Assembly: GCF_988242995.1 (NCBI RefSeq)
Contig: NZ_OZ547043.1
DNA: 64,000 bases
Reading direction: 5' to 3' (one strand)
Numbering within the stretch: the first letter of the stretch is position 1; each line of letters begins with the position of its first letter. Below are positions 17,169 to 55,787 of this stretch, piece by piece. The notes beneath the pieces are model-generated. The model was not told the DNA's origin. It saw only the letters and a program-made list of their open reading frames with translations, and ran no database searches. The translations under genes and the position numbers were made by a program.

Positions 17169-19568
17169 TCAGATTTTCAGCGGTAACACGCTGCTCATCC
17201 AGCCTGGAATTTCTTCGGCGGGTAGGGGGCGGGAAAAGAAATATCCCTGAATAACGCGACAGTGGATCTTGCGTAGCATCTCAAATTGCTCTTTGGTTTC
17301 GACGCCTTCCGCCACGACGGTTAAATTAAGGCTTTGCCCAATGCTGGTAATGGCTTCAAGTAAGGCAAGGATGCGTTTTTCGGTCAGACAACGATCGACA
17401 AAACTTTTGTCAATTTTGATTTCCGTCACCGGAAGACTGACTAAGCGGGATAATCCGGAAAAGCCCGTGCCAAAATCATCTACCGATAAACCCACGCCCA
17501 TATCGCGCAGGATCTGAATGCGCTTAAAGATTTCGGTATCGTGTTCCATCATCATGCTTTCCGTGATTTCCACCGTCAGCTGGTGGCCGTCAATACCCCA
17601 GGCGTGCATTGCATCAGACACCTGATTAGGCAGTTGATTACTGCGAAAGTGCAGCGCCGACAAGTTAACGGATAACGCCGGGATATGAATATTCTGGCTA
17701 CGCCATTCTGCTAACTGACGACAAGCTTCCGCGATGACCCAGCGTCCAATATTTTCGATTTCACCGATCTCTTCTGCGAGAGGAATAAACCGTGAAGGGG
17801 GCACATGACCATGCAGGGGATCGTGCCAGCGAGCAAGGGCTTCGATGCCGTAGAGTTCACCCGTTTCTGCGAAGATTTGCGGCTGGTAAACCAGTTTTAG
17901 TTGGTTATTGCTAATCGCTTCTTTCAGCGCCGCGCCTAAAACCAAACGCTCTTTTACCATTTCGTTCATCGCCGGGCTGAAGAACTGCCAGCCGTTACCG
18001 CCATTCTTGCGAATATAATCCATTGCATTGTGAGCAGTGGAGAGCAGGTAATCGCGGTTTTTACCCACGTCGTAGCTGATGCCAATGCTCAAGGTGAGCG
18101 GGAATGGTTTATCGTCAATCATTATCGGCTTGCTGACCACATTCCGTAGCTCATCGGCGATTTGGGTTATGTTACTGACGTCGTTTTCCAGGCTCACGAG
18201 GACAAACTGCGTACCTTCGATACGACAGAGATACTGATCCGGTTTGAGTTTTTCACGAAAGCGATTGACCACTTCCAGCAATGCCTGATCGGCCCACGCA
18301 TAGCCAAGGCTATCAATCACATCCTGAATATGGTCAACACCGATGAGATACACCACCGGAGAGACGGCTTTGTCGACCAGGTCATCGAGGTAATTGTGCA
18401 GGTTATTGCGATTTGGCAGACCGGTCATCGGATCAAATTGGATGAGTTGTTCAATATGCTGACGGCTTTTTTCCTGTTCCAGCGCCAGCGCGGCCATATG
18501 CTGGCTGATATCTGCCACGCGTTCGATAAAGGCGCTGGTTTCTGCTCCTGACGAGGTTTTAATTTGCAGGATCCCCGCCGGCGCGCCATCACGCTGACGA
18601 ATGGTCGCTGACCAGCTTTGCGCATTTTGAACTTCTGTACCGTGCGAAGATGACGCCCAGTGTATCGGCATCCCGTTGCGCAGCGCGAACAGCGAAACAT
18701 GCGATTCGTTGAGTACAGATTCGATGTTACGACAAATGATTTCCCCCATTTCATGAAATGGCGGGCTGCTGCACATGGCGGCGAGAATATTGCCTTCAAG
18801 CTGGCGGATTTGCCGTTCTTCGGTGATATCCGAGAAAGTCATTACCAGGTTCTGCAGATGCGCGAGCACGTCATAAACCGGGCTGATAGAGGCTTTAATC
18901 CAGATTTTTTCACCGGTGCGCGTCAACAGCAGAAATTCATCCTGATCGCGGGCGGTTTTCCATAGCAACTGTTGTAAACGAATGCGGTTATCGGCAGGGA
19001 ATTCAGGAATGTTCAGGAGTGAATCGGGCTGCATACCGCTGGCTTCGCTAATGCAGTAACCAAACATTTCGGTAAATGCGCGATTGCACTGCACAATATG
19101 GCGTTCCGGATCGAGGACAATCACCGGTCGGTCGAGATGGTCAACGGCAATAATCAATTGTCGGGTCTGTTCTTTTTGCGCCATTTCTACGCTGGCATCC
19201 CGTACCAGCGCCAGGTAATAAACTTTCCCCTCGGCGCTCACTTTCGATAGCGCAAAACGGGTCCAGATTTTACTGCCGTCTTTTTTCTCCAGCTGCAGCT
19301 CCCGACTCATCCCCTCGACGCGCGCTTTACCGCCTTCACGGTTGTGACGGATGTATTCAGGATGCGCAGGACGCAAATCCCGCGGAATCAGCATATCAAT
19401 GTTATTGCCAATGACTTCTTCACGTTTGTACCCCCAGAGCTTCTCTGCGGCTGGGTTGAAAAACATCACTTCATCATTTTCGTTAATTAACACCGCGCCC
19501 ATCATATTTTGCTCAAGGGCGGGGAAAAAAATGCCATCGGCGGCATTATCCGCATCGGTTAGCTTCAT
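17169..19568 (-). CDS. dosP: Heme-regulated c-di-GMP phosphodiesterase (PAS-PAS-GGDEF-EAL), direct oxygen sensor
   Basis: Track ORF 17169-19592 with start at MKLTDADNAADGIFFPALEQNMMGAVLIN (799 aa); EAL-domain motifs in the C-terminal part. Confidence 0.9.
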   Translation of the reverse strand: MKLTDADNAADGIFFPALEQNMMGAVLINENDEVMFFNPAAEKLWGYKREEVIGNNIDMLIPRDLRPAHPEYIRHNREGGKARVEGMSRELQLEKKDGSKIWTRFALSKVSAEGKVYYLALVRDASVEMAQKEQTRQLIIAVDHLDRPVIVLDPERHIVQCNRAFTEMFGYCISEASGMQPDSLLNIPEFPADNRIRLQQLLWKTARDQDEFLLLTRTGEKIWIKASISPVYDVLAHLQNLVMTFSDITEERQIRQLEGNILAAMCSSPPFHEMGEIICRNIESVLNESHVSLFALRNGMPIHWASSSHGTEVQNAQSWSATIRQRDGAPAGILQIKTSSGAETSAFIERVADISQHMAALALEQEKSRQHIEQLIQFDPMTGLPNRNNLHNYLDDLVDKAVSPVVYLIGVDHIQDVIDSLGYAWADQALLEVVNRFREKLKPDQYLCRIEGTQFVLVSLENDVSNITQIADELRNVVSKPIMIDDKPFPLTLSIGISYDVGKNRDYLLSTAHNAMDYIRKNGGNGWQFFSPAMNEMVKERLVLGAALKEAISNNQLKLVYQPQIFAETGELYGIEALARWHDPLHGHVPPSRFIPLAEEIGEIENIGRWVIAEACRQLAEWRSQNIHIPALSVNLSALHFRSNQLPNQVSDAMHAWGIDGHQLTVEITESMMMEHDTEIFKRIQILRDMGVGLSVDDFGTGFSGLSRLVSLPVTEIKIDKSFVDRCLTEKRILALLEAITSIGQSLNLTVVAEGVETKEQFEMLRKIHCRVIQGYFFSRPLPAEEIPGWMSSVLPLKI

Positions 19569-47035: not shown

Positions 47036-47468
47036 AATTCTCCAGAATTTATATTTAAGTAGCTGAATAAAGAAAGTTAACAATTAAGTCATTCTGTTAT
47101 TGCTTATAAAACAAGAATCATTCTTGATGGGATATTGCCCTGAGAATATAGTTTCCAGGGTTATTACATTTCACGAAGAACGATAATATCTTTAAATTAC
47201 AAGGACACCTAATCACAACAAGTTTATTGCAGCACTTGTTGTAGAGGGTATTTGCAAAGACATTTTATGTCGCTAAATAACATTACGATTTCATTATGCA
47301 TGTTATTTATAAACAGCGACTAAACAGAATATTATTGCGAACAAGGGAAGTGTCAGGAAAGGTCAAGAGCGGCCAATGGTTTATATGGCTATAAAACATT
47401 AGCTATGGTTAATGTTTGACTGGTGTAACTAACACGGAATTGCTCTAAACAGATAAGTGCAGGGTTTA

Positions 47469-47723
47469 TTAAAGCTGACCGACAGACTTTCTTAACCCGG
47501 TAATATCTCTCTTAGGTGACTCTCCAAACATCCGCGAATATTCCCGACTGAAATGGGATAAGCTTTCGTAACCGACAGCATAGGCTGCAGTGGTGACATC
47601 GTAATGTTCATTCAGCATCAGTCGCCTGGCTTCATTGAGGCGTAGCCATTTCTGATACCGGAGTGGACTCATTCCCGCAAGCTGTCTGAAGTGTTGATGG
47701 AAAGTGGGGGTGTTCATTTGCAC
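47469..47723 (-). pseudogene. yneL: Remnant of an AraC-family regulator (C-terminal HTH only)
   Basis: 84-aa ORF is only the AraC C-terminal HTH domain (LRYQKWLRLNEARRLM...GYESLSHFSREYSRMFGESP); no N-terminal domain ORF upstream. Confidence 0.65.
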
Positions 47724-48003
47724 GCGGTTTGCCAGCCTGACTCTTCAACGCAGGGAAGATGCGGCAAACGGCAAACCTGCATACCAGCCAGCCTATATCC
47801 GGTATGCACAGGCCAATCATGAAAGAGGAGAGGCTTTATGTTCTGGAACCCTGAAGTAATAACGACGACTGGAAAATCGCTTCGCATCACTCAAATTCCA
47901 TTTAACTATTCTGGGTTTGAGGGATATACATAATTGACTTCAGCACCAGAAACAGCATAACAAACTGTTTTAAATGGATATTAATCAAATGGCGATTCAA
48001 ACT

Positions 48004-48038
48004 CACAGTTATGAACTCAGTTTTGGTTCATAACTGTG
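48004..48038. repeat. Perfect 13-bp inverted repeat with 9-bp spacer
   Basis: cacagttatgaac-tcagttttg-gttcataactgtg; a related palindromic 10-mer gttcatgaac lies about 40 nt further on. Confidence 0.8.
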
Positions 48039-48137
48039 TTAAACGCTGTCCATAAATCACTCGATGTTACGCTTATTGGTTCATGAACTGTTCGTTCTAA
48101 TGTTGTGATGTGCGTCAGGTTTTAGTGTTCGGTAATG

Positions 48138-48941
48138 TTACCTTTTACTCGATGATCGATTGTTTAGCACCTCTCCCACAACCGGAGCAGCGGTAAATGC
48201 GTTTGGCCAGCCAGCATAGAAGGCGGCCTGGGTAACGATCTCACCAGCTTCCTCAACAGAAAGTCCATTATCCATTGCTCTGTTAAGGTGATAGCCAATC
48301 TGCGCGCTCTGTCCGGATGCGATTAAGGCGCTGACCGTAATCAGGCTTCTGTCGCGGGGTTTCAGCGCGGGTCTTTGCCAGAGATCCAGGAAGAGTGGAT
48401 CAGCAGTGAATTTAACCAGGCCTGGAGATATTGGGCCAACATTTTTTTCCACTGTTTCTGAACGCTGCTTTTCTGCTTCCTGATTGAGAGGAAGCAGGTC
48501 CGGAGAAGCGTCAGGAAGTGCATCTGCCGTGACGCCACGAGTTTCAAATACTGCTTTGGTCACGCTGACGGCTGACATTGCATTTGGCCAACCTGAGTAG
48601 AACGCCAGATGGGTAATGATTTCTGATAATTCCGCTGGCGTCACGCCGCTATCGAGAGCGACGTCAATATAGTGCTTAAGCTGGGCAGGCTGGTTGCGGG
48701 CAATCAGCATGGCGACGGTCACCACACTACGATCCCTCGGTGAGAGGGCGTCGCGTGTCCACAGATCTTCAGTAATAGCTTCGCGACCAAAGCGCGCGAG
48801 AGCCGGTGAGACGGAACGAATATCAGCTTCCGAAATCGCTGACGGTTCTATTTTCATCATAGCTTTACCTCTTGTTTCCTCAGCATTGGCAAAATCAGAA
48901 ATAACAAGCGACATAGCCGCTGCTGCAAGTACGCTTTTCAT
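48138..48941 (-). CDS. Tandem carboxymuconolactone decarboxylase-like (AhpD-like) protein with predicted signal peptide
   Basis: 267 aa; two repeated modules each with a ...ITHLAFYSGWPNA... type segment (CMD/AhpD fold); N-terminus MKSVLAAAAMSLVISDFANA looks like a Sec signal. Confidence 0.7.
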   Translation of the reverse strand: MKSVLAAAAMSLVISDFANAEETRGKAMMKIEPSAISEADIRSVSPALARFGREAITEDLWTRDALSPRDRSVVTVAMLIARNQPAQLKHYIDVALDSGVTPAELSEIITHLAFYSGWPNAMSAVSVTKAVFETRGVTADALPDASPDLLPLNQEAEKQRSETVEKNVGPISPGLVKFTADPLFLDLWQRPALKPRDRSLITVSALIASGQSAQIGYHLNRAMDNGLSVEEAGEIVTQAAFYAGWPNAFTAAPVVGEVLNNRSSSKR

Positions 48942-48956
48942 GTTAATCCTTACTGG

Positions 48957-49682
48957 TCAACGTTGCTGCTCCTGTTTGATTCCGCCTTTGTTACGAAGAA
49001 ATACCGGTTTTACCGGGATTGCGTCCTTCCTGGCGCTCATATGCGCCGTTTGCCTGAGGTAATCCAGGAAGTGCGGCGTTTGTCGGTGCAGTTGATAATC
49101 CTCCTCACTGGCGTAAATCTCATAGAAATACCAGCGTTTTGGAGTCTCTGAATCTGTACCGGCATACATGGCTAACACGCCTTTCTCTACTTTGAGCGAC
49201 TCGACCATTTCAGGAAGGACGATGTTTCTAAATTCGCTCTGAAATTCAGGCTTTACTTCGACGATCACCAGATTATTGATAGTTCGTTCATTCGGTATGA
49301 TGTGTTTGTCGCCCAGAAACTGTGGCTCCAGGGTAATTTTCTTCTTCCTGTCAATAATGTCAGGTGCACGAGCAGCGAATGCTTTGTATGGGGCGGCATT
49401 GAGATGTTTGCGATAAGCACGCTCATTTTCATAGAGTTCGAACATGAATGCCTTATGTGGATTGTCGCTGTGGTGCAGGGCGTACATCGCCAGCGTACCT
49501 ACTTCATGATCAACCGAAGCGGAAATCGTCTGTCTGGCTACGTCTGCAAAGTCGTTGTCCCGATCGGGTCTGATGCCGAGCTCGAAGATATTCATCTCCG
49601 GCTTATTCGGCGCGTCCGGTTTTGTTGCAAAGACAGGGCTGCTTATTAGCATGCAAATTAAAAGCATAAAAGTCTTTTTCAC
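48957..49682 (-). CDS. Tandem ABM-type (antibiotic biosynthesis monooxygenase-like) protein with predicted signal peptide
   Basis: 241 aa; two halves each with LAMYA...FYEIY / FELYENE... features of the ferredoxin-like ABM fold; N-terminus MKKTFMLLICMLISSPVFA. Confidence 0.6.
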   Translation of the reverse strand: MKKTFMLLICMLISSPVFATKPDAPNKPEMNIFELGIRPDRDNDFADVARQTISASVDHEVGTLAMYALHHSDNPHKAFMFELYENERAYRKHLNAAPYKAFAARAPDIIDRKKKITLEPQFLGDKHIIPNERTINNLVIVEVKPEFQSEFRNIVLPEMVESLKVEKGVLAMYAGTDSETPKRWYFYEIYASEEDYQLHRQTPHFLDYLRQTAHMSARKDAIPVKPVFLRNKGGIKQEQQR

Positions 49683-49797
49683 GATGATCTTTTTACTGAC
49701 ATTACTGTTTAAGACGTTCGATCAACTGGTGCTGGTAGGAACGTAACCGACCGCTACTGGCGCTCTCAAAGACTAGAGGAGGAAAAGTGAATAAGGG

Positions 49798-50817
49798 CTA
49801 TCGCGTCCATACCTGCTTAACATCTTTCGTTTGCGGCGTATTTTGCGCCATGATCCCCGTCAGAACATGCGGCTGGTAGGTTTCTTCCAGAAACTGAATT
49901 TCCTCCGGACTTAGTTGAAGATTTACTGCGTTTACCGCGCCATCGACATGAGCTTTTTTTGTAGCCCCTACGACAGGTGATGTGACTTTTGTCAGCAGCC
50001 AAGCGAGAGATATTTCCGTCATTGACACCAGATGGCGTTCGGCCAGTTCGGCTACACGCTCAATAATGCTGCGATCCTGTTCAGCCGTGCTGTCATATTT
50101 TCCACGCGCATAGTCATCCTCTGTGGCTCGCCGCGTATAGCCTTCTTTACGAGAGAGGCGGCCGCTGGCCAGCGCGCTATAGGGGGTCATTGCGATATTA
50201 TCCTCAGTGCACAGGCCGAAGAGCTCCCGTTCATCTTCGCGCATAATTAGATTGTAGTGGCTCTGTACGGAAACAAAGGGCGTCAGCCCTTCGCGTTCAG
50301 CAAGGGCGTTCGCCTTCGCCAGCTGCCAGGCATAGCAGTTTGAAATACCAACAGCTCGTACTTTGCCAGCAGTAACAGCGGTATGTAACGCTTCAAGCAC
50401 GTCGATAATGGGCGTGTTGTAATCCCAGATGTGGTAGATGTAGAGGTCGATATAGTCCATCCCCAGATTCTTCAGGCTCTGGTCAAGGGATTGAGCGATT
50501 GCCTCTTTTCCGCTGATCCCTCCGGCAATTTGTGCGGGGGTTCGCGGCAGAAACTTGGTGGCCAGGACGATATCATCGCGTTTCGCCATCTCCCGTAATG
50601 CCCGGCCAACGTATCGCTCACTGGAGCCATTCTGGTAGGCTATAGCGGTATCGTAAAAGTTGATGCCCTTTTCAAGGCCATAGCGAATGATGTCGCGGCT
50701 TGCTGTTTCGTCCAGCGTCCAGCTATGCTGACCCGTCGACGGATCGCCAAACCCCATGCATCCCATGCAGATGCGGGAAACAAGTAAGTCACTTTTACCG
50801 AGCCGGGTATACTGCAT
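49798..50817 (-). CDS. Aldo/keto reductase
   Basis: 339 aa; AKR motifs (GINFYDTAIAY, catalytic Tyr/Lys context). Confidence 0.8.
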   Translation of the reverse strand: MQYTRLGKSDLLVSRICMGCMGFGDPSTGQHSWTLDETASRDIIRYGLEKGINFYDTAIAYQNGSSERYVGRALREMAKRDDIVLATKFLPRTPAQIAGGISGKEAIAQSLDQSLKNLGMDYIDLYIYHIWDYNTPIIDVLEALHTAVTAGKVRAVGISNCYAWQLAKANALAEREGLTPFVSVQSHYNLIMREDERELFGLCTEDNIAMTPYSALASGRLSRKEGYTRRATEDDYARGKYDSTAEQDRSIIERVAELAERHLVSMTEISLAWLLTKVTSPVVGATKKAHVDGAVNAVNLQLSPEEIQFLEETYQPHVLTGIMAQNTPQTKDVKQVWTR

Positions 50818-50819
50818 TG

Positions 50820-51392
50820 TTATTCTCCCTCTGGATTATTCACGACGGAATTGAGCAGTTCGACAAGCCTTGAAGCGTGTTCCCGGGCAAGCGTTTTTTG
50901 CTGCGCGATTTTGTCGGCATCCCGGTCGGCATAGCTGATACCGCAGGTATAAACCGGCGCCAGCAGCTCAAGATTGCACAGCCTTGCCGTGGTTTCGAAC
51001 GGAATAAGATACTCTTCAATGGTATTGCCAAAGAAACTGTCGACGGTATAGAGCTCCTCTGGCGCTCCCGTTGTAAAGGAGAGGATCAGCTTTTTACCGC
51101 CCAGTTTCGCCGTTGAGCCATGCGCGAAGCCGTGAACAAAGACCTCGTCCAGCCATTTTTTCATTAATCCTGGCAGCCCATACCAGGAAAAAGGGAACTG
51201 CCAGACAATCACATCGGCCCTGAGCAGGCTTTTCTGCTCCGCCGCGATGTTGAATTTGCCATCCGGATAGAGCCTGTCCAGACGACGAATCTCAACATCG
51301 GGAAGGGCGGTCTCCACTTCATCAAGAATAGTGGCATTGGCGACGGAATGGGTAAGCTCAGGATGACCTGAAATAACAAGGATATTTTTCAT
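50820..51392 (-). CDS. Flavodoxin-like NAD(P)H:quinone oxidoreductase family protein
   Basis: 190 aa; MKNILVISGHPE... N-terminus and WQFPFSWYGLPGLMKKWLDEV typical of NAD(P)H dehydrogenase (quinone) family; 3-nt gap to the downstream AKR gene. Confidence 0.75.
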   Translation of the reverse strand: MKNILVISGHPELTHSVANATILDEVETALPDVEIRRLDRLYPDGKFNIAAEQKSLLRADVIVWQFPFSWYGLPGLMKKWLDEVFVHGFAHGSTAKLGGKKLILSFTTGAPEELYTVDSFFGNTIEEYLIPFETTARLCNLELLAPVYTCGISYADRDADKIAQQKTLAREHASRLVELLNSVVNNPEGE

Positions 51393-51542
51393 TTCAATCA
51401 GTTAAACATCTTTGGTGAATATTAAATCCAGTATAGAGTGACAACATTATTTTTTTAGAGCAGTAAAGGCTCATTCACTTTTAGGCAAAAACTAATAATT
51501 GTCGGCTGATCACAATGTGCTCAGTCATCATGAAACGGTGAA

Positions 51543-52220
51543 CTAAACCGTGATGCCCAGTAAACGTTCTGCATTGCGAAACGCGATGGCCTCTTTTTCA
51601 GCCTTGTTGACGGGCAGACTGTCTATAAAGGTTTTTACACCGTCCAGGGGTCTGATAGGGATAACCGACGGAGAACAGGATCCTTTCAGCACCCATTAAC
51701 GCGTAGATAAACTGGAAGTGCGGCAGTGTTAGCATATGACGGGGTAACGTAAACGTGTTCCTGGAAGGTTCTCGTTAGCGTGCGTGACAGACCCGTTGCA
51801 GCCAGTGCTAGGCTGTCATCAAGACGCTGGAGCCAGAAGGGTAACATCTCCCCCCAGTGGCCACTGATTACCTGCAGGTTGGGATATTTATCAAATGCGC
51901 CCGATAACATCAGCCGCAACAAATGGATCCCCGCTTCGTGATGCCAGCCCCAGGCAAACATAGAAAGCCTGGCGTTGACCTCTGCGCTGAAGCCCGTGAA
52001 GTAGGCCTGCTGTACGCTTTTAAGCGGTAACCCGGGATGAAGATAGAGTGGCACATTCAGTTTATTAAAGCGGGAAAGCAGGGAGTCGGTCAGGATTATG
52101 ACCATCAGCGACGGTTTTCCCCCTGTCGCCAAGGAAAGGTGCCTGCTCAAGCGCAACAGGCATACACGCGCGCCCTAACTCGCTGTCGAGATAATTTTCT
52201 TCGAGGCAAATGATTTTCAT
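51543..52220 (-). pseudogene. Frameshifted amidohydrolase-2 (TIM-barrel metal-dependent hydrolase) gene
   Basis: Coding potential is split over three frames: MKIICLEENYLDSELG... (from ATG at 52220), a 156-aa middle ORF (51686-52156) containing ISGHWGEMLPFW, and a C-terminal piece ...AEKEAIAFRNAERLLGITV* ending at 51543. Confidence 0.55.
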
Positions 52221-52322
52221 ATTCTCACCATTCATACAAAGCAGTAAAAGTGATACAGATTAGAATCACCCGGAACAGCCCGTTCGTGTGTGTCATTCAT
52301 GACAGTCTGTTCCGGACGGGCT

Positions 52323-53270
52323 TTACACCATCGGTTTTTCCCAGGCGCCTCGTGTATCCACTCTGGTCTCTGCGGCGAGTTGTTCCAGCAGGATGATTTC
52401 CTCATCGCGTAACTGGATGTCTGAAGCGCAGGCGGCGTCCAGAACGTGATGGACTTTAGTCGCACCAACGAGGGGAAGGGTACCTTTCACAATAGCCCAT
52501 GCGATGGATATCTGTGCCACGCTGGCATTCCTTTCGGCTCCCATTTTTTTCATGGCGGCGGTTAGTCTTTCTATCTGCGGCAGTACGGCGTTATAACTTT
52601 CGGCCCGGCCACTCCCGGCAGGCATGGGATGATTTGAATCATAACGACCACTGAGCGCGCCTTGCTCCAGGACCATGTAAGCAAAGAACGTGATGTTATT
52701 TTGTCGGCAATAATCAAGGATCCCGGCCTCTTCAGAAGCGCGATAGAGCAGGCTGTAGTGATTTTGTACTGCACTGAGGGAATAACCGGAAGCGTTAAGG
52801 ATTTCATTGGCGCGTCTGATTTGTGCCAGATTGTGGTTGGAAACACCTACGCGTTTTACCTTACCGCTTTGTAAAAGTGGGATCAGTCCTGGCGTCCATT
52901 TTTCGACGTCGAGGGGATTATGGATCCAGTAGATATCAATCGCGTCCACGCCCAGGCGCCCAAGGCTGGCCTCAAGCATATCGCTGACAGGCTGCGCAGA
53001 CTGCTTGTCCGCAATCTGCGGCGTGAATTTGGTGGATAAAATTATGTTCTCGCGGGGAAACTGACGGACTAATGCTCCCAGCGCAGTCTCGGAACTCCCC
53101 ATACCATATACTGCTGCGGTATCCCAGAGATTGAGGCCCTTACTCATGGCCGCAGTGAACACTTCTGCCATCTGAGTATCAGAAAGATGATTACCAAAGA
53201 CGGTGTCGCCGCCGGCAAAGCCTGTGCCCCAGGACCATGTACCTAGTGCGACTGGAGGTAGTGTTTTCAT
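52323..53270 (-). CDS. Aldo/keto reductase
   Basis: 315 aa; AKR motifs (LWDTAAVYG, IDIYWIHNP). Confidence 0.8.
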   Translation of the reverse strand: MKTLPPVALGTWSWGTGFAGGDTVFGNHLSDTQMAEVFTAAMSKGLNLWDTAAVYGMGSSETALGALVRQFPRENIILSTKFTPQIADKQSAQPVSDMLEASLGRLGVDAIDIYWIHNPLDVEKWTPGLIPLLQSGKVKRVGVSNHNLAQIRRANEILNASGYSLSAVQNHYSLLYRASEEAGILDYCRQNNITFFAYMVLEQGALSGRYDSNHPMPAGSGRAESYNAVLPQIERLTAAMKKMGAERNASVAQISIAWAIVKGTLPLVGATKVHHVLDAACASDIQLRDEEIILLEQLAAETRVDTRGAWEKPMV

Positions 53271-53343
53271 ATTCAGCTCCTGAAAAAAGGCCGGATCGTG
53301 GCTGACTTAAACCGGCCAAGTAAGGTGAGTAACGATGAATTAA

Positions 53344-54033
53344 TTAAGCTGTCCGGCGGAGTGCATTTAACAGCGCCACACCAACCCCATGTGCTGAAGC
53401 GGGATTCTGCCCCGTGATAAGGCGATCGTCGGTAACCACGTTTTCAGACCAGTTTGGAGCTTCATGATAAAGCGCACCATGCTCGCGAAGTGCGGTTTCA
53501 AGCAGGAAGGGAACCACATCTGTTGTGTGAACTTCTTCCTCTTCCTTGTTGGTAAAGGCCGCCACATTTTTCCCTTTTATCAGGTATTCGCCGCTACTGA
53601 GTTTTGCGTCAACCAATGCCGCAGGCCCGTGGCAGACGGCTGAGACAATCCCATCACTTTCATACACTTCGCGGATAATACGCTGGGCATCCTGATTATC
53701 ACGGAAATCCCACATGGTCCCATGACCACCTGCAAAGAAAACTGCGCTGTAATCGGCACCTTTCAGCTCGGATAACGCAGGTGTTGTTGCCAGGCGCTGC
53801 TGAAAATCGGTTTCGTTCCAGTACCAGGCGTTAACAGGGTCGCTGAGGTCAAATCCATCCACCGGTGGCTGCCCCCCGCGAATACTGGCTATTGTTGTTT
53901 TTATTCCGGCATCTTCCAGTACTTTCAGCGGATGAGTCAGCTCGGCCAGGAAAAAACCGGTTGGTACACCGGATGCGCCTTTAATCGGATGGCTGGAAAC
54001 GACACATAGCACTGGTTTATATGCAGGTTTCAT
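53344..54033 (-). CDS. DJ-1/PfpI (class I glutamine amidotransferase-like) family protein
   Basis: Roughly 229 aa; nucleophile-elbow-like AVCHGP; start uncertain (track ORF extends to 54045). Confidence 0.75.
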   Translation of the reverse strand: MKPAYKPVLCVVSSHPIKGASGVPTGFFLAELTHPLKVLEDAGIKTTIASIRGGQPPVDGFDLSDPVNAWYWNETDFQQRLATTPALSELKGADYSAVFFAGGHGTMWDFRDNQDAQRIIREVYESDGIVSAVCHGPAALVDAKLSSGEYLIKGKNVAAFTNKEEEEVHTTDVVPFLLETALREHGALYHEAPNWSENVVTDDRLITGQNPASAHGVGVALLNALRRTA

Positions 54034-54041
54034 ATCGGTCC

Positions 54042-54353
54042 TCACTCTTTATTTTTAAATTCATCGGCGAAGAGATTTTCCCAGTTAATAAAGGAGCCAA
54101 GCGGTATACACTCGAAGCTTAGTAAGCCTGCTTTTGCCAACGGGAATTCGGCCATAACGTTCATCGCTTCATCGACAGAGTCACATTCAAGAAAAATAGC
54201 GACGCCAGGTCTGTCCTGACGGAAGTAGATGTCGCGGATGAAGCCTGATTTATACAATCCCCAGGCGTGCAGCGCTTCAGCGTTGAGGTGCGGAGCATAT
54301 TTCTCCAGCGATGCTCCAGGGGCAGGGATATCCAGACATAAAATTCGCATCAT
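54042..54353 (-). CDS. Small alpha+beta-barrel protein, possibly muconolactone-isomerase-like
   Basis: 103-aa ORF first in the operon; weak pattern similarity to muconolactone isomerase and other dimeric alpha/beta-barrel proteins; assignment tentative. Confidence 0.45.
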   Translation of the reverse strand: MMRILCLDIPAPGASLEKYAPHLNAEALHAWGLYKSGFIRDIYFRQDRPGVAIFLECDSVDEAMNVMAEFPLAKAGLLSFECIPLGSFINWENLFADEFKNKE

Positions 54354-54489
54354 AGTCTCCTGAACTCAGGTCGTTGTAGAAAGAGACTAAAGTATAAGAG
54401 GCGTATTTCAGGAAGATTAGAGGGTCATTGACTTAAGCATTTTTAGACTGTACTTAATAATCAGGCGAGAATTGCTTTAGGAAAACATT

Positions 54490-55389
54490 ATGAATAACGC
54501 TCTTTATAACCAGATTCGCATCTTCCAGAGCATTGCGCGGGAGGGCAATATTTCGGCAGCCGCAAGGAAACTGGAAATTACGCCTCCCTCCGTCAGCAAT
54601 GCACTAAAGCTGCTGGAAGAGTATATCGGCCATCCGCTTTTTGTGCGTACGACCCGCCGTATAGAGCTGACGGAAACCGGTCAATTATTGCTGGAACAGA
54701 CCGCTGCGGCGGTGGAGTCGCTGGAAAACTCACTTGAAAGCATTCGCGACCAGCATCAGGAGCCCTCTGGGATGGTGCGAATTACGCTCTCGCGTTTTGC
54801 CTACCTGTTAATTCTTAAGCCTGCGATGGCAGAATTCTGTCAGCAATATCCGGGTATACAGTTAGAAATTTCGGTCTACGACGGTACCGTGAATATCATC
54901 AAAGAGCGTTTTGATCTGGGGATCCGTTTTGGCGATATTCTTGAGGGAGGGGTGGTGGCCCGACCGTTAATGAAACCGTTTCGTGAAGGATTATATGCAT
55001 CCTCAGCGTATCTCTCCCGACATGGAACGCCTGAAGTGCCGGCAGATCTCTGTCATCACCAGCTGATTGGTTACCGTTTTATCACCAACAACCGCATCCT
55101 TCCGCTGCTCCTGAACGATCGCGGTGAGCAGTTGACCGTTGAGATGCCGGGGCAGTTAATCAGCAACGATATTGACGTTATGGCAGACGGGATCCGTAAC
55201 GGGCTGGGAATTGGGCGCTTGTTTGAGCCTGTCTGGCAGTTACAGCCGGACAGGGAGCGCTTTATTCCGGTGATGGAGAGCTACTGGAAAACCTACCCGC
55301 CAGTGTATCTCTATTACCCCAAAAACGCGGGTAAAACGAAAAGAGTGAAGGCCCTGATTGATTTTCTGATATCCACTACGGGGCGATAA
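54490..55389 (+). CDS. LysR-family transcriptional regulator
   Basis: 299 aa; N-terminal HTH (ISAAARKLEITPPSVSNALKLLEE) and LysR substrate-binding domain; divergent from the redox operon. Confidence 0.85.
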   Translation: MNNALYNQIRIFQSIAREGNISAAARKLEITPPSVSNALKLLEEYIGHPLFVRTTRRIELTETGQLLLEQTAAAVESLENSLESIRDQHQEPSGMVRITLSRFAYLLILKPAMAEFCQQYPGIQLEISVYDGTVNIIKERFDLGIRFGDILEGGVVARPLMKPFREGLYASSAYLSRHGTPEVPADLCHHQLIGYRFITNNRILPLLLNDRGEQLTVEMPGQLISNDIDVMADGIRNGLGIGRLFEPVWQLQPDRERFIPVMESYWKTYPPVYLYYPKNAGKTKRVKALIDFLISTTGR

Positions 55390-55787
55390 AGACGATAACG
55401 CCTCGTTCAGTATGGAGATGCATCGAATGGCATTGTGAGTTTTTTTTCACAGATGGGCGTAATCGTCAGTGGATTTTACATACGAGGATAGCGCCCACAT
55501 ACTGACATCATTAATTAACGTTGGGTGAGGTTTACCGGGGGGGAGGGGAACGCGAACCAGGAGATGGAGGTGGCCAATCTGGTACGAACCGCCGCGTAGC
55601 TTGCACGGCAAGAGCTGCTGACTGATTCATCAGTTAAGCTACTGAAAGAGCGGAACACATGAACTTAAGAACAAACCACCACATTTAACATAATATACAT
55701 TATGCGCACCAGCATAAACCAAGGAAGAATCCAGTCGTTGGCGGCCATAATTGTCCTGCTCATTAACAACGACCAAAACCCCATATC

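Follow-up and report, generated by a model that had tools for sequence, protein, structure and literature searches.

A conserved subterminal inverted repeat in the recombinase-distal end of a GInt-like island between yneL and hipA in Escherichia coli

The window, by which we mean the whole 64-kb stretch of E. coli chromosome analyzed here, carries in order ydeP, the ydeQRS fimbrial cluster, a yneL fragment, a set of redox genes, a LysR gene, hipA-hipB, and an autotransporter. The redox genes form an operon whose products are a CMD-family protein, a quinol monooxygenase, two aldo/keto reductases, an NAD(P)H oxidoreductase, amidohydrolase fragments, and a glutamine-amidotransferase-like protein. 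Inside the operon, at 51686-52235, a 139-aa RefSeq "amidohydrolase family protein" and an overlapping 51-aa ORF together look like a disrupted gene. The yneL fragment (AraC-family, 47469-47906) is itself variable, with at least three deletion states among E. coli; homology ends at 47678, as in K-12, or at 47906, and in K-12 ~125 nt of unrelated DNA lies between 47678 and 47804.

Beyond the stop codon of the last gene of the operon (CMD-family, minus strand, 48138..48941) lies a perfect inverted repeat (IR) at 48004-48038, with a 13-9-13 arrangement and arms complementary at 13/13 positions by sequence inspection. The distance from the IR to this stop codon is 99 nt. The palindrome GTTCATGAAC lies 53 bp further in and starts 40 nt after the right arm of the IR, with its center 62.5 bp, or ~6 helical turns, from the IR dyad. 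The IR arm centers are 22 bp apart, G-C pairs make up 5/13 of the AT-rich stem, and the tails flanking the hairpin are AGUUUGAAU and UUAAACGC. These measurements agree with a preliminary description of the sequence, which had reported a perfect 13-bp repeat with a 9-bp spacer, followed ~40 nt later by GTTCATGAAC and placed ~100 nt 3′ of the last operon gene.

The palindrome is not an independent feature but a third, overlapping pair of the IR half-site, and TTGGTTCAT is likewise present twice, at 48023 and 48076. Overall, 4 copies of the hexamer ATGAAC/GTTCAT fall within 85 nt, where the window as a whole averages 0.14 per 250 nt; the wider motif consensus, TYATGAACY, was defined after the data were seen. 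Among perfect inverted repeats of at least 13 nt with a loop of 3–20 nt, this is the only one in the 64-kb window. The chance expectation for such a repeat was 0.017 under a uniform model, and none arose in 40 first-order Markov simulations. No further copy of the IR was detected in the window at ≤2 mismatches beyond chance. Coordinates of all features discussed are given in Table 1.

Table 1. Features of the island and its borders (positions in the window; L numbers denote related loci)
Feature	Position	Strand	Basis or remark
Left ATTTAAC heptamer, junction/crossover sequence (attL core)	47900..47906	+	Empty-site comparison; homology of nine or more related ends begins at (A/G)TTTAAC
Whole gin-distal end, 231 nt, AT-rich	47907..48137	+	GC 0.364 vs 0.504 in cargo
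Terminal block of left end, TATTCTGGGTTTGAGGGATATACATAA, presumed core-type recombinase binding region	47907..47933	+	Invariant in loci with entirely different left flanks
IR left arm, CACAGTTATGAAC	48004..48016	+	Contains half-site TTATGAAC
IR spacer, TCAGTTTTG, 9 nt	48017..48025	+	Length invariant; 5/9 positions invariant across lineages
IR right arm, GTTCATAACTGTG	48026..48038	+	Complementary to left arm
Palindrome, GTTCATGAAC	48079..48088	+	Two overlapping copies of IR half-site
Cargo: redox operon (-) plus divergent LysR regulator (54490..55389, +)	48138..55389	.	ORFs; RefSeq annotation of identical region in strain 266917_2
CMD-family gene 3′ end, accompanying the element end in relatives otherwise without redox cargo	48138..48234	-	L009, L010, and L018 match window to 48234, then diverge
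Right-end remnant, 65 nt	55618..55682	+	86-96% identical to right end of integrase-bearing L009, L010, L012
ATGAAC half-site in right end, CACATGAACTTAAG	55659..55664	+	18 nt from heptamer
Right ATTTAAC copy (attR core)	55683..55689	+	Empty-site comparison
Host-side flank, ATAATATACATTATGCGCAC, probable attB arm	55690..55709	+	Same 20 nt after right junction in E. coli, Tatumella (L025), and Salmonella diarizonae (L023)

The redox genes and the LysR gene belong to an island for which an empty site is available. In strain VTB97074v (L003), yneL stands directly beside hipA with a single ATTTAAC between the flanks, and aligning the window with this island-free site set the junctions at 47906|47907 and 55682|55683. 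The island therefore comprises 47907-55682 (7.8 kb) plus one flanking copy of ATTTAAC, with one copy of the heptamer at each edge of the occupied site. Because the left junction maps to 47906|47907, the left edge of the island and the IR within it are 98 nt apart; the preliminary description had likewise supposed the repeat to lie at an island edge. Among complete E. coli genomes, 481 of 5,426 match 47400-48200 in full, and most of the remainder match only to 47906 or, like K-12, to 47678. The region corresponds to hipA-ydeT, integration hotspot #20 of the E. coli pan-genome (Hochhauser et al. 2023, PMC10121019, supplementary file 2).

On the far side of the island, ATAATATACATTATGCGCAC follows the right junction and is also found in empty sites, while the DNA beyond these 20 nt is unrelated between E. 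coli, Tatumella, and S. diarizonae. This stretch probably represents the host-side arm of a favored attachment site, or else a remnant of an older element. It has ATATACAT(A/T)AT in common with the left end at 47924-47934. Strain 266917_2 (NZ_CP026723.1 372025-375190, L005) is identical to the window around the IR; where the window has 55390-55617, an ISNCY transposase fragment and a SIR2-family gene separate the LysR gene of this strain from hipA, and no right end is recognizable, so otherwise identical strains differ on the right side of the island.

The left end of the island proved to be widespread. A sensitive search with 47907-48137 recovered single copies in 556 E. coli genomes, ~60 of them only 60-80% identical and in other contexts. 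Across genomes the 231-nt end occupied a median of one place per genome and a maximum of 2, on which basis repetitive elements (REP/BIME, ERIC, MITE) were rejected as an explanation. The preliminary description had foreseen that the motif might turn out to belong to a repetitive extragenic family or to be missing from other island-bearing strains; instead, motif searches over genomes gave a single copy per genome, kept in all island-bearing strains examined, and it is because of this single copy that we do not consider the IR part of a REP-type family.

Outside E. coli, a plasmid search found the left-end stretch in Klebsiella, Raoultella, Enterobacter, Salmonella, Serratia, and Citrobacter plasmids, with the first 36 nt also found in Pantoea plasmids. 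A scan for the terminal pattern in one genome per species gave chromosomal copies in Enterobacter cloacae, E. sichuanensis, Pseudocitrobacter vendiensis, Klebsiella grimontii, Tatumella saanichensis, Salmonella diarizonae, and Pantoea ananatis. The end including the IR was found in Escherichia, Enterobacter, Klebsiella, Raoultella, Pseudocitrobacter, and Tatumella, on both chromosomes and plasmids. Identity to the window over the 231 nt was 92-97% in L009, L018, and L021, and 72-76% in L006, L016, L022, L024, and L025.

In all of these related ends, homology starts at (A/G)TTTAAC, with unrelated DNA to the left and differing cargo to the right, and the ATTTAAC heptamer is present at every junction in other genomes. 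The cargo beside the end may be a restriction enzyme with Hachiman, tricarballylate-linked genes, nucleotidyltransferase/ThiF genes, or redox genes, and the end is thus conserved across genera independently of what it borders. In Enterobacter sichuanensis (L021), the redox cargo and the left end are paired as in the window but in a different flank, which places the left end with the island and not with the E. coli site. Relatives that diverge from the window after 48234 carry a 93-nt CMD fragment annotated by RefSeq. Shorter derivatives were also observed. A mini-element of ~1.3 kb in Enterobacter cloacae DSM 26481 (L018, 4458-5793) has little beyond its two ends, with the IR and the CMD relic kept. 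Another of ~0.9 kb in S. diarizonae (L023, ~658-1588) consists of ~75 nt of left end and a 68-aa relic of a recombinase gene (E1, below); this element is clearly decayed, and its left end lacks the IR. On the Raoultella plasmid p23141-mcr (L014, 2960-3001), the DNA to the left of ATTTAAC, GGTGTTCGATTCTCGCAGTGGCCT, resembles by eye the 3′ end of a tRNA gene.

We examined how the IR has been conserved by comparing five lineages of the left end that are 25-45% diverged. Invariant columns made up 76% of the terminal 34 nt (47900-47933) and 69-77% of the IR block, against 5-26% of the surrounding stretches. Compared with the window, relatives whose ends otherwise differ by 4-7% had 0/35 differences in the 35-nt IR block, and those whose ends otherwise differ by 29-43% had 2–4/35. 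The IR has therefore been under block-wise purifying selection. Its hexamers stand at the fixed left-end positions +112, +127, +180, and +184, the last two forming the GTTCATGAAC palindrome, which is conserved at the same distance from the terminus in 4/5 lineages. Within the spacer, T118, A120, T122, T123, and T124 are invariant (alignment A4). In the stem, 9 of the 13 pairs are invariant and a single pair is disrupted in two lineages, with no compensatory change at any pair. This pattern indicates that the IR is conserved as sequence and not as pairing; since most pairs never vary, the absence of covariation is in itself compatible with a DNA or RNA hairpin. The gene adjoining the IR is transcribed toward it in the window and away from it in L006, L016, L022, L024, and L026, so in these five relatives the IR lies upstream of a gene. 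Of the three suggestions made in the preliminary description, a recombination scar at the island edge came closest: the edge stands, whereas the scar does not, the repeat being part of a selectively conserved element end that accompanies unrelated cargo in at least six genera.

The opposite end of the island is reduced to 65 nt in the window. About 126 other E. coli genomes match the right end at 80-90% identity, most of them over the 55618-55682 stretch alone. This end contains the same motif as the left end. In every right-end variant examined, a half-site is present at −31 to −35, in one orientation, 18–19 nt from the heptamer, and in the divergent right-end type of L006 and L018 the corresponding sequence, TTATGAACTAA, matches the left arm of the IR in L006-type left ends at 11/11 nt. 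The probability of a chance hexamer match in the 65-nt right end alone is ~3%. In the Tatumella right end (L025, ~2660-2700), a small inversion between short inverted repeats has changed CCTGAAAGAGAGG to CCTCTTTTTCAGG; the ATGAAC half-site is lost there, and the recombinase genes have already decayed.

Complete relatives show what the right end once adjoined. In the undisrupted elements, found on the H15 chromosome and on plasmid pX14-3-NDM, four genes lie by the right end, designated here E1 (507 aa), E2 (556 aa), E3 (845 aa), and E4 (167 aa), and the first recombinase gene begins ~70 nt further in than the 65-nt remnant. The complete H15 element is ~42.5 kb long, occupies the same yneL|hipA attachment site as the island in the window, and reads ATTTAAC, IR-bearing left end, defense and mrk cargo, E4-E3-E2-E1, right end, ATTTAAC, hipA. 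E1 and E2 are present in L009 and L010. At the same site in strains YZ22PE165 and ZF31, two overlapping recombinase-like genes (507 and 535 aa) lie inward of the right end, then IS2 and different cargo; the left end of these elements matches that of the window and contains a 97-nt CMD gene relic. In Tatumella, the IR-bearing left end is accompanied by frameshifted remnants of E1 and E3 beside the right end, and this element represents an intermediate stage in the loss of the recombination operon. No homologue of E1–E4 was found by tblastn anywhere in the window. The island in the window has lost the four-gene operon and kept 65 nt of that end.

Two further observations concern this side of the element. 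In L009 (19925-19945) and L012 (~19070-19090), an extra GTTCAT and the start codon of the first recombinase gene overlap within …CGCTAAGTTCATGGCATAT…. Both E. coli and the Salmonella relic retain this copy, through which the putative protein that would bind the other copies might exert autoregulation. Joints in which a right end meets a left end across a single heptamer (right-end|ATTTAAC|left-end) were seen in L006 (5849-6017), L018 (4380-4480), L013 (2888-3025), and L007 (5782-5918), and may reflect either tandem insertion at the att site of a resident element or a circle-junction-like arrangement. The upstream right end of L006 adjoins a truncated E1 homologue, and because this homologue is only 29% identical to E1, two subfamilies share one heptamer.

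To place the complete relatives, we compared E1–E4 with GinA–D of the E. coli Sakai GInt (ECs_3512-3509), an element that appears among the entries of Additional file 10 of Idola et al. 2023 (PMC10214605). E1 matched GinA at 8e-8, E3 matched GinC at 5e-7, and E2 matched GinB at 4e-3; the matches were colinear but weak, at <30% identity, and E4 gave no significant match to GinD (0.87). Both E2 (2.5e-24) and Sakai GinB (1.7e-95) matched NCBIfam NF041502, which recognized E2 only among the four proteins. In Pfam, Phage_integrase matches were marginal for E1 and E2 (E of 0.1–0.25) and nothing was found for E4, while a PDB sequence search with E1 and E2 gave no match. Box I- and box II-like motifs can be read in the E1 and E2 sequences (in E1, …GLRVGE…, …HVGRHT…, and …RY…). 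Hochhauser et al. operationally define a GInt by one integrase match at <1e-5 together with the same organization, and the weak E1 and E3 matches of the complete relatives fall within that definition. Because the Sakai matches are weak, the proteins much larger, and the Pfam matches marginal, we call the complete elements distant, GInt-like relatives, and because the gin-type operon is absent and 65 nt of that end remain, the island in the window is best described as a derivative and not as a strict GInt.

Taking both ends together, we think the IR probably, though by no means certainly, belongs to a site-specific integrative element as a conserved cis-element of its recombinase-distal end, where it would provide accessory sites for the recombination proteins of that element. 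The IR arms, the GTTCATGAAC palindrome, and the single copy in the right end are all copies of TYATGAACY and would act as accessory ("arm-type" or lox-like 13-9-13) binding sites. The tyrosine-recombinase-like proteins, singly or jointly, are candidate binders, as is the small fourth protein. Once bound, these proteins could bring both ends together for excision, or could shape the joined attachment site of a circular form for integration, the junction of which is predicted to read …CCACCAC-ATTTAAC-TATTCTGGG…. An accessory, arm-type role is the most economical version of this proposal, because the crossover maps to ATTTAAC, ~100 bp from the IR. As the element in the window has no recombinase genes, a recombination function is not currently exercised in cis, and the IR site there either is a relic or depends for its use on recombinases provided in trans.

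Several other explanations were weighed against an accessory recombination site. A hairpin in the transcript, working as a weak or factor-dependent terminator, a 3′-end stabilizer, or an insulator against transcription crossing the element boundary, has in its favor that the minus-strand RNA folds well (181 nt, −37.3 kcal/mol, z = −3.4, with the IR as the dominant stem), that the IR follows 99 nt beyond the last stop codon, and that an insulator at the edge of a mobile element would be useful with any cargo. A stable hairpin is thus predicted at the 3′ end of the transcript, but an intrinsic terminator is not: neither strand has a T/U tract, a consensus scan of 47700-48400 for Rho-independent terminators was negative, and the stem has only 5/13 G-C pairs. 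On this point the preliminary description, which had seen no classic intrinsic terminator, was right. Its suggestion of an RNA processing element fared less well, given that there is no covariation, that Rfam returned no match at E of 1 or below, and that the neighboring gene is transcribed away in several relatives; with 0/13 pairs showing compensatory change, a structured RNA family was likewise rejected. A transcript hairpin in general has also to contend with the pair broken in two lineages, the conserved loop sequence, and the position of the IR upstream of a gene in L006, L016, L022, L024, and L026, and it leaves the motif in the opposite end unexplained, so that we hold it to be unlikely. 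Somewhat less likely again is a hairpin in single-stranded DNA, serving either as an oriT-like site for conjugative plasmids or, were the circular intermediate single-stranded as proposed for SEs (strand-biased circularizing integrative elements), as a priming site for the second strand. Both strands form the hairpin at a dG of ~ −13 kcal/mol (z −5 to −6), the loop bases are conserved, the family is present on many conjugative plasmids and in several genera while encoding no transfer functions, and the intermediates of GInts and SEs have been described as unclear (PMC10214605). Against this, no evidence of a relaxase or nic site was found, the 10-bp palindrome forms no meaningful hairpin (−1.5 kcal/mol), and the motif is also single and unpaired in the other end, which fits protein recognition of duplex DNA better.

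A functionless relic, whether a chance occurrence or decaying sequence at an old recombination junction, would be in keeping with an element devoid of recombinase genes, yet we find it very unlikely given the chance expectation of 0.017, which excludes chance, and an IR block far better conserved than its flanks across lineages 25-45% diverged; conservation of the block beyond the flanks requires selection, at least in the autonomous relatives. The IR as an operator, through which the island LysR protein or the truncated AraC-family yneL product would control the redox operon, draws on dyad symmetry, which is typical of such sites, and on the presence of a LysR gene on the island. However, 6.4 kb separate the IR, at the distal 3′ end of the operon, from the divergent LysR/operon promoter region, and yneL is a fragment outside the island. 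We reject such an operator, which has next to no likelihood, because the IR is conserved with unrelated cargo lacking the operon and the LysR gene. The proposal in the preliminary description of a regulator-binding site for the redox operon falls for the same reason, the IR being kept beside restriction, Hachiman, tricarballylate, or other genes.

A broader idea extends the accessory-site reading to islands that carry no recombinase at all. It is conceivable, although we would not expect it, that the conserved ends suffice as cis-signals, and that recombinase-less islands and the 0.9–1.3-kb Salmonella and Enterobacter minis are non-autonomous "mini-GInts" moved in trans by full elements and stacking in tandem at ATTTAAC. 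In a bolder version, the IR may act as a DNA hairpin in a single-stranded circular intermediate. Were the mini-GInt idea true, the IR would be the first defined recognition feature of the GInt-type distal end, as well as a practical marker for "integrase-free" islands at E. coli hotspots.

Earlier work has already established GInts, their occurrence in E. coli, and the hipA-ydeT hotspot. In the literature searched, we found no description of this divergent enterobacterial subfamily, of the strongly conserved subterminal 13-9-13 IR in the end reported as featureless or the half-site common to both ends, or of the range of derivatives that lack recombinases or are reduced to minis, together with the tandem joints. 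Many E. coli defense and metabolic islands at hotspots have no visible mobility genes, which raises the question of how they move (Hochhauser et al. 2023, PMC10121019). The island in the window is one such hotspot island and is a stripped-down relative of three-integrase elements, with both ends still recognizable. The 35-bp IR and the half-site in the other end offer a concrete cis-element candidate for a distal end with "no identifiable feature", and if these sites are functional, recombinase-less islands and tandem arrays could be annotated by the sequence signature they provide. The IR has no demonstrated meaning for the redox operon itself and is of little consequence to it. The IR is largely explained as part of the end of a mobile element and should be of moderate interest to specialists in such elements.

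ATTTAAC fits the RYYYAAC inverse core of integron attC sites, and its complement fits GTTRRRY; with no integron integrase, a "cassette" of 7.8–42 kb, and GInt-like recombinases, we regard this as coincidence. Ends of the Tn7, Tn3, or IS type were rejected as there is no transposase and no matching terminal repeats. The IR resembles loxP/FRT sites (13-8-13) in its 13-nt arms with centers 22 bp apart, a likeness of mechanism and not of membership, and differs from them in that the crossover is at ATTTAAC ~100 bp away and not in the IR spacer. It also resembles the arm-type sites of lambda attP, where short motifs recur in the two arms at distances of tens to ~200 bp from the crossover.

After GInts, the next closest kinds of element by analogy appear to be Tn554 and SEs. 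Tn554 of staphylococci (tnpA, tnpB, tnpC) encodes two tyrosine recombinases and a small protein, inserts in a site- and orientation-specific manner, and has a 6–7-nt core sequence at both junctions without long terminal inverted repeats; by description it differs from the present family in having three genes, not four, and a host among the Firmicutes. SEs carry intA-tfp-intB-srap (Idola et al. 2023, PMC10214605), and the likeness by description is a four-gene module at one end comprising two recombinases, a recombinase-fold protein, and a small protein. Further points of likeness are that the terminal inverted repeats of SEs, as reported there, are imperfect and enclose a 6-bp spacer, and that SEs favor few target sites and occur in Gammaproteobacteria. 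By description, the clean empty sites present in the population here set the family apart from SEs, which are also rare in Escherichia (0.3% of replicons vs 7.5% for GInts) and were separated from GInts by sequence in the published survey; both GInts and SEs are considered putatively non-mobilizable (PMC10214605).

GInts themselves are defined by a ginABCD operon at one end, encoding three integrase-like proteins and a small protein, with 2.5–70 kb of cargo and flanking imperfect direct repeats that are 10-17-mers (PMC5385486; preprint 10.1101/2024.06.12.598671). GInts leave their site as circles, and all four genes are needed for them to integrate. The 3′ end, which is part of the minimal functional element, is 0.2–0.4 kb long, AT-rich, and poorly conserved, and no recognized feature was reported in it (PMC5385486). 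In E. coli, GInts are known carriers of defense islands (PMC10121019). The family described here departs from this picture in several respects. The island in the window lacks gin genes, a counterpart of the operon being present in relatives with the same ends (H15, pX14-3-NDM, and L009). The proteins of those relatives are 507/556/845/167 aa, compared with 401/437/543/132 aa in Sakai. The flanking repeat is a perfect 7-mer (ATTTAAC), as opposed to imperfect 10-17-mers. The 3′ end, featureless in the GInt papers, here has a conserved 13-9-13 IR whose half-site recurs in the other end. The likeness to GInts lies in the tripartite layout of a four-gene operon at one end of the complete relatives, variable cargo, and a short AT-rich opposite end (231 nt, 36% GC vs 50% in the cargo), and extends to site-specific integration with short flanking direct repeats, an empty attB in relatives, the absence of transfer genes, and cargo of both defense and metabolic kinds.
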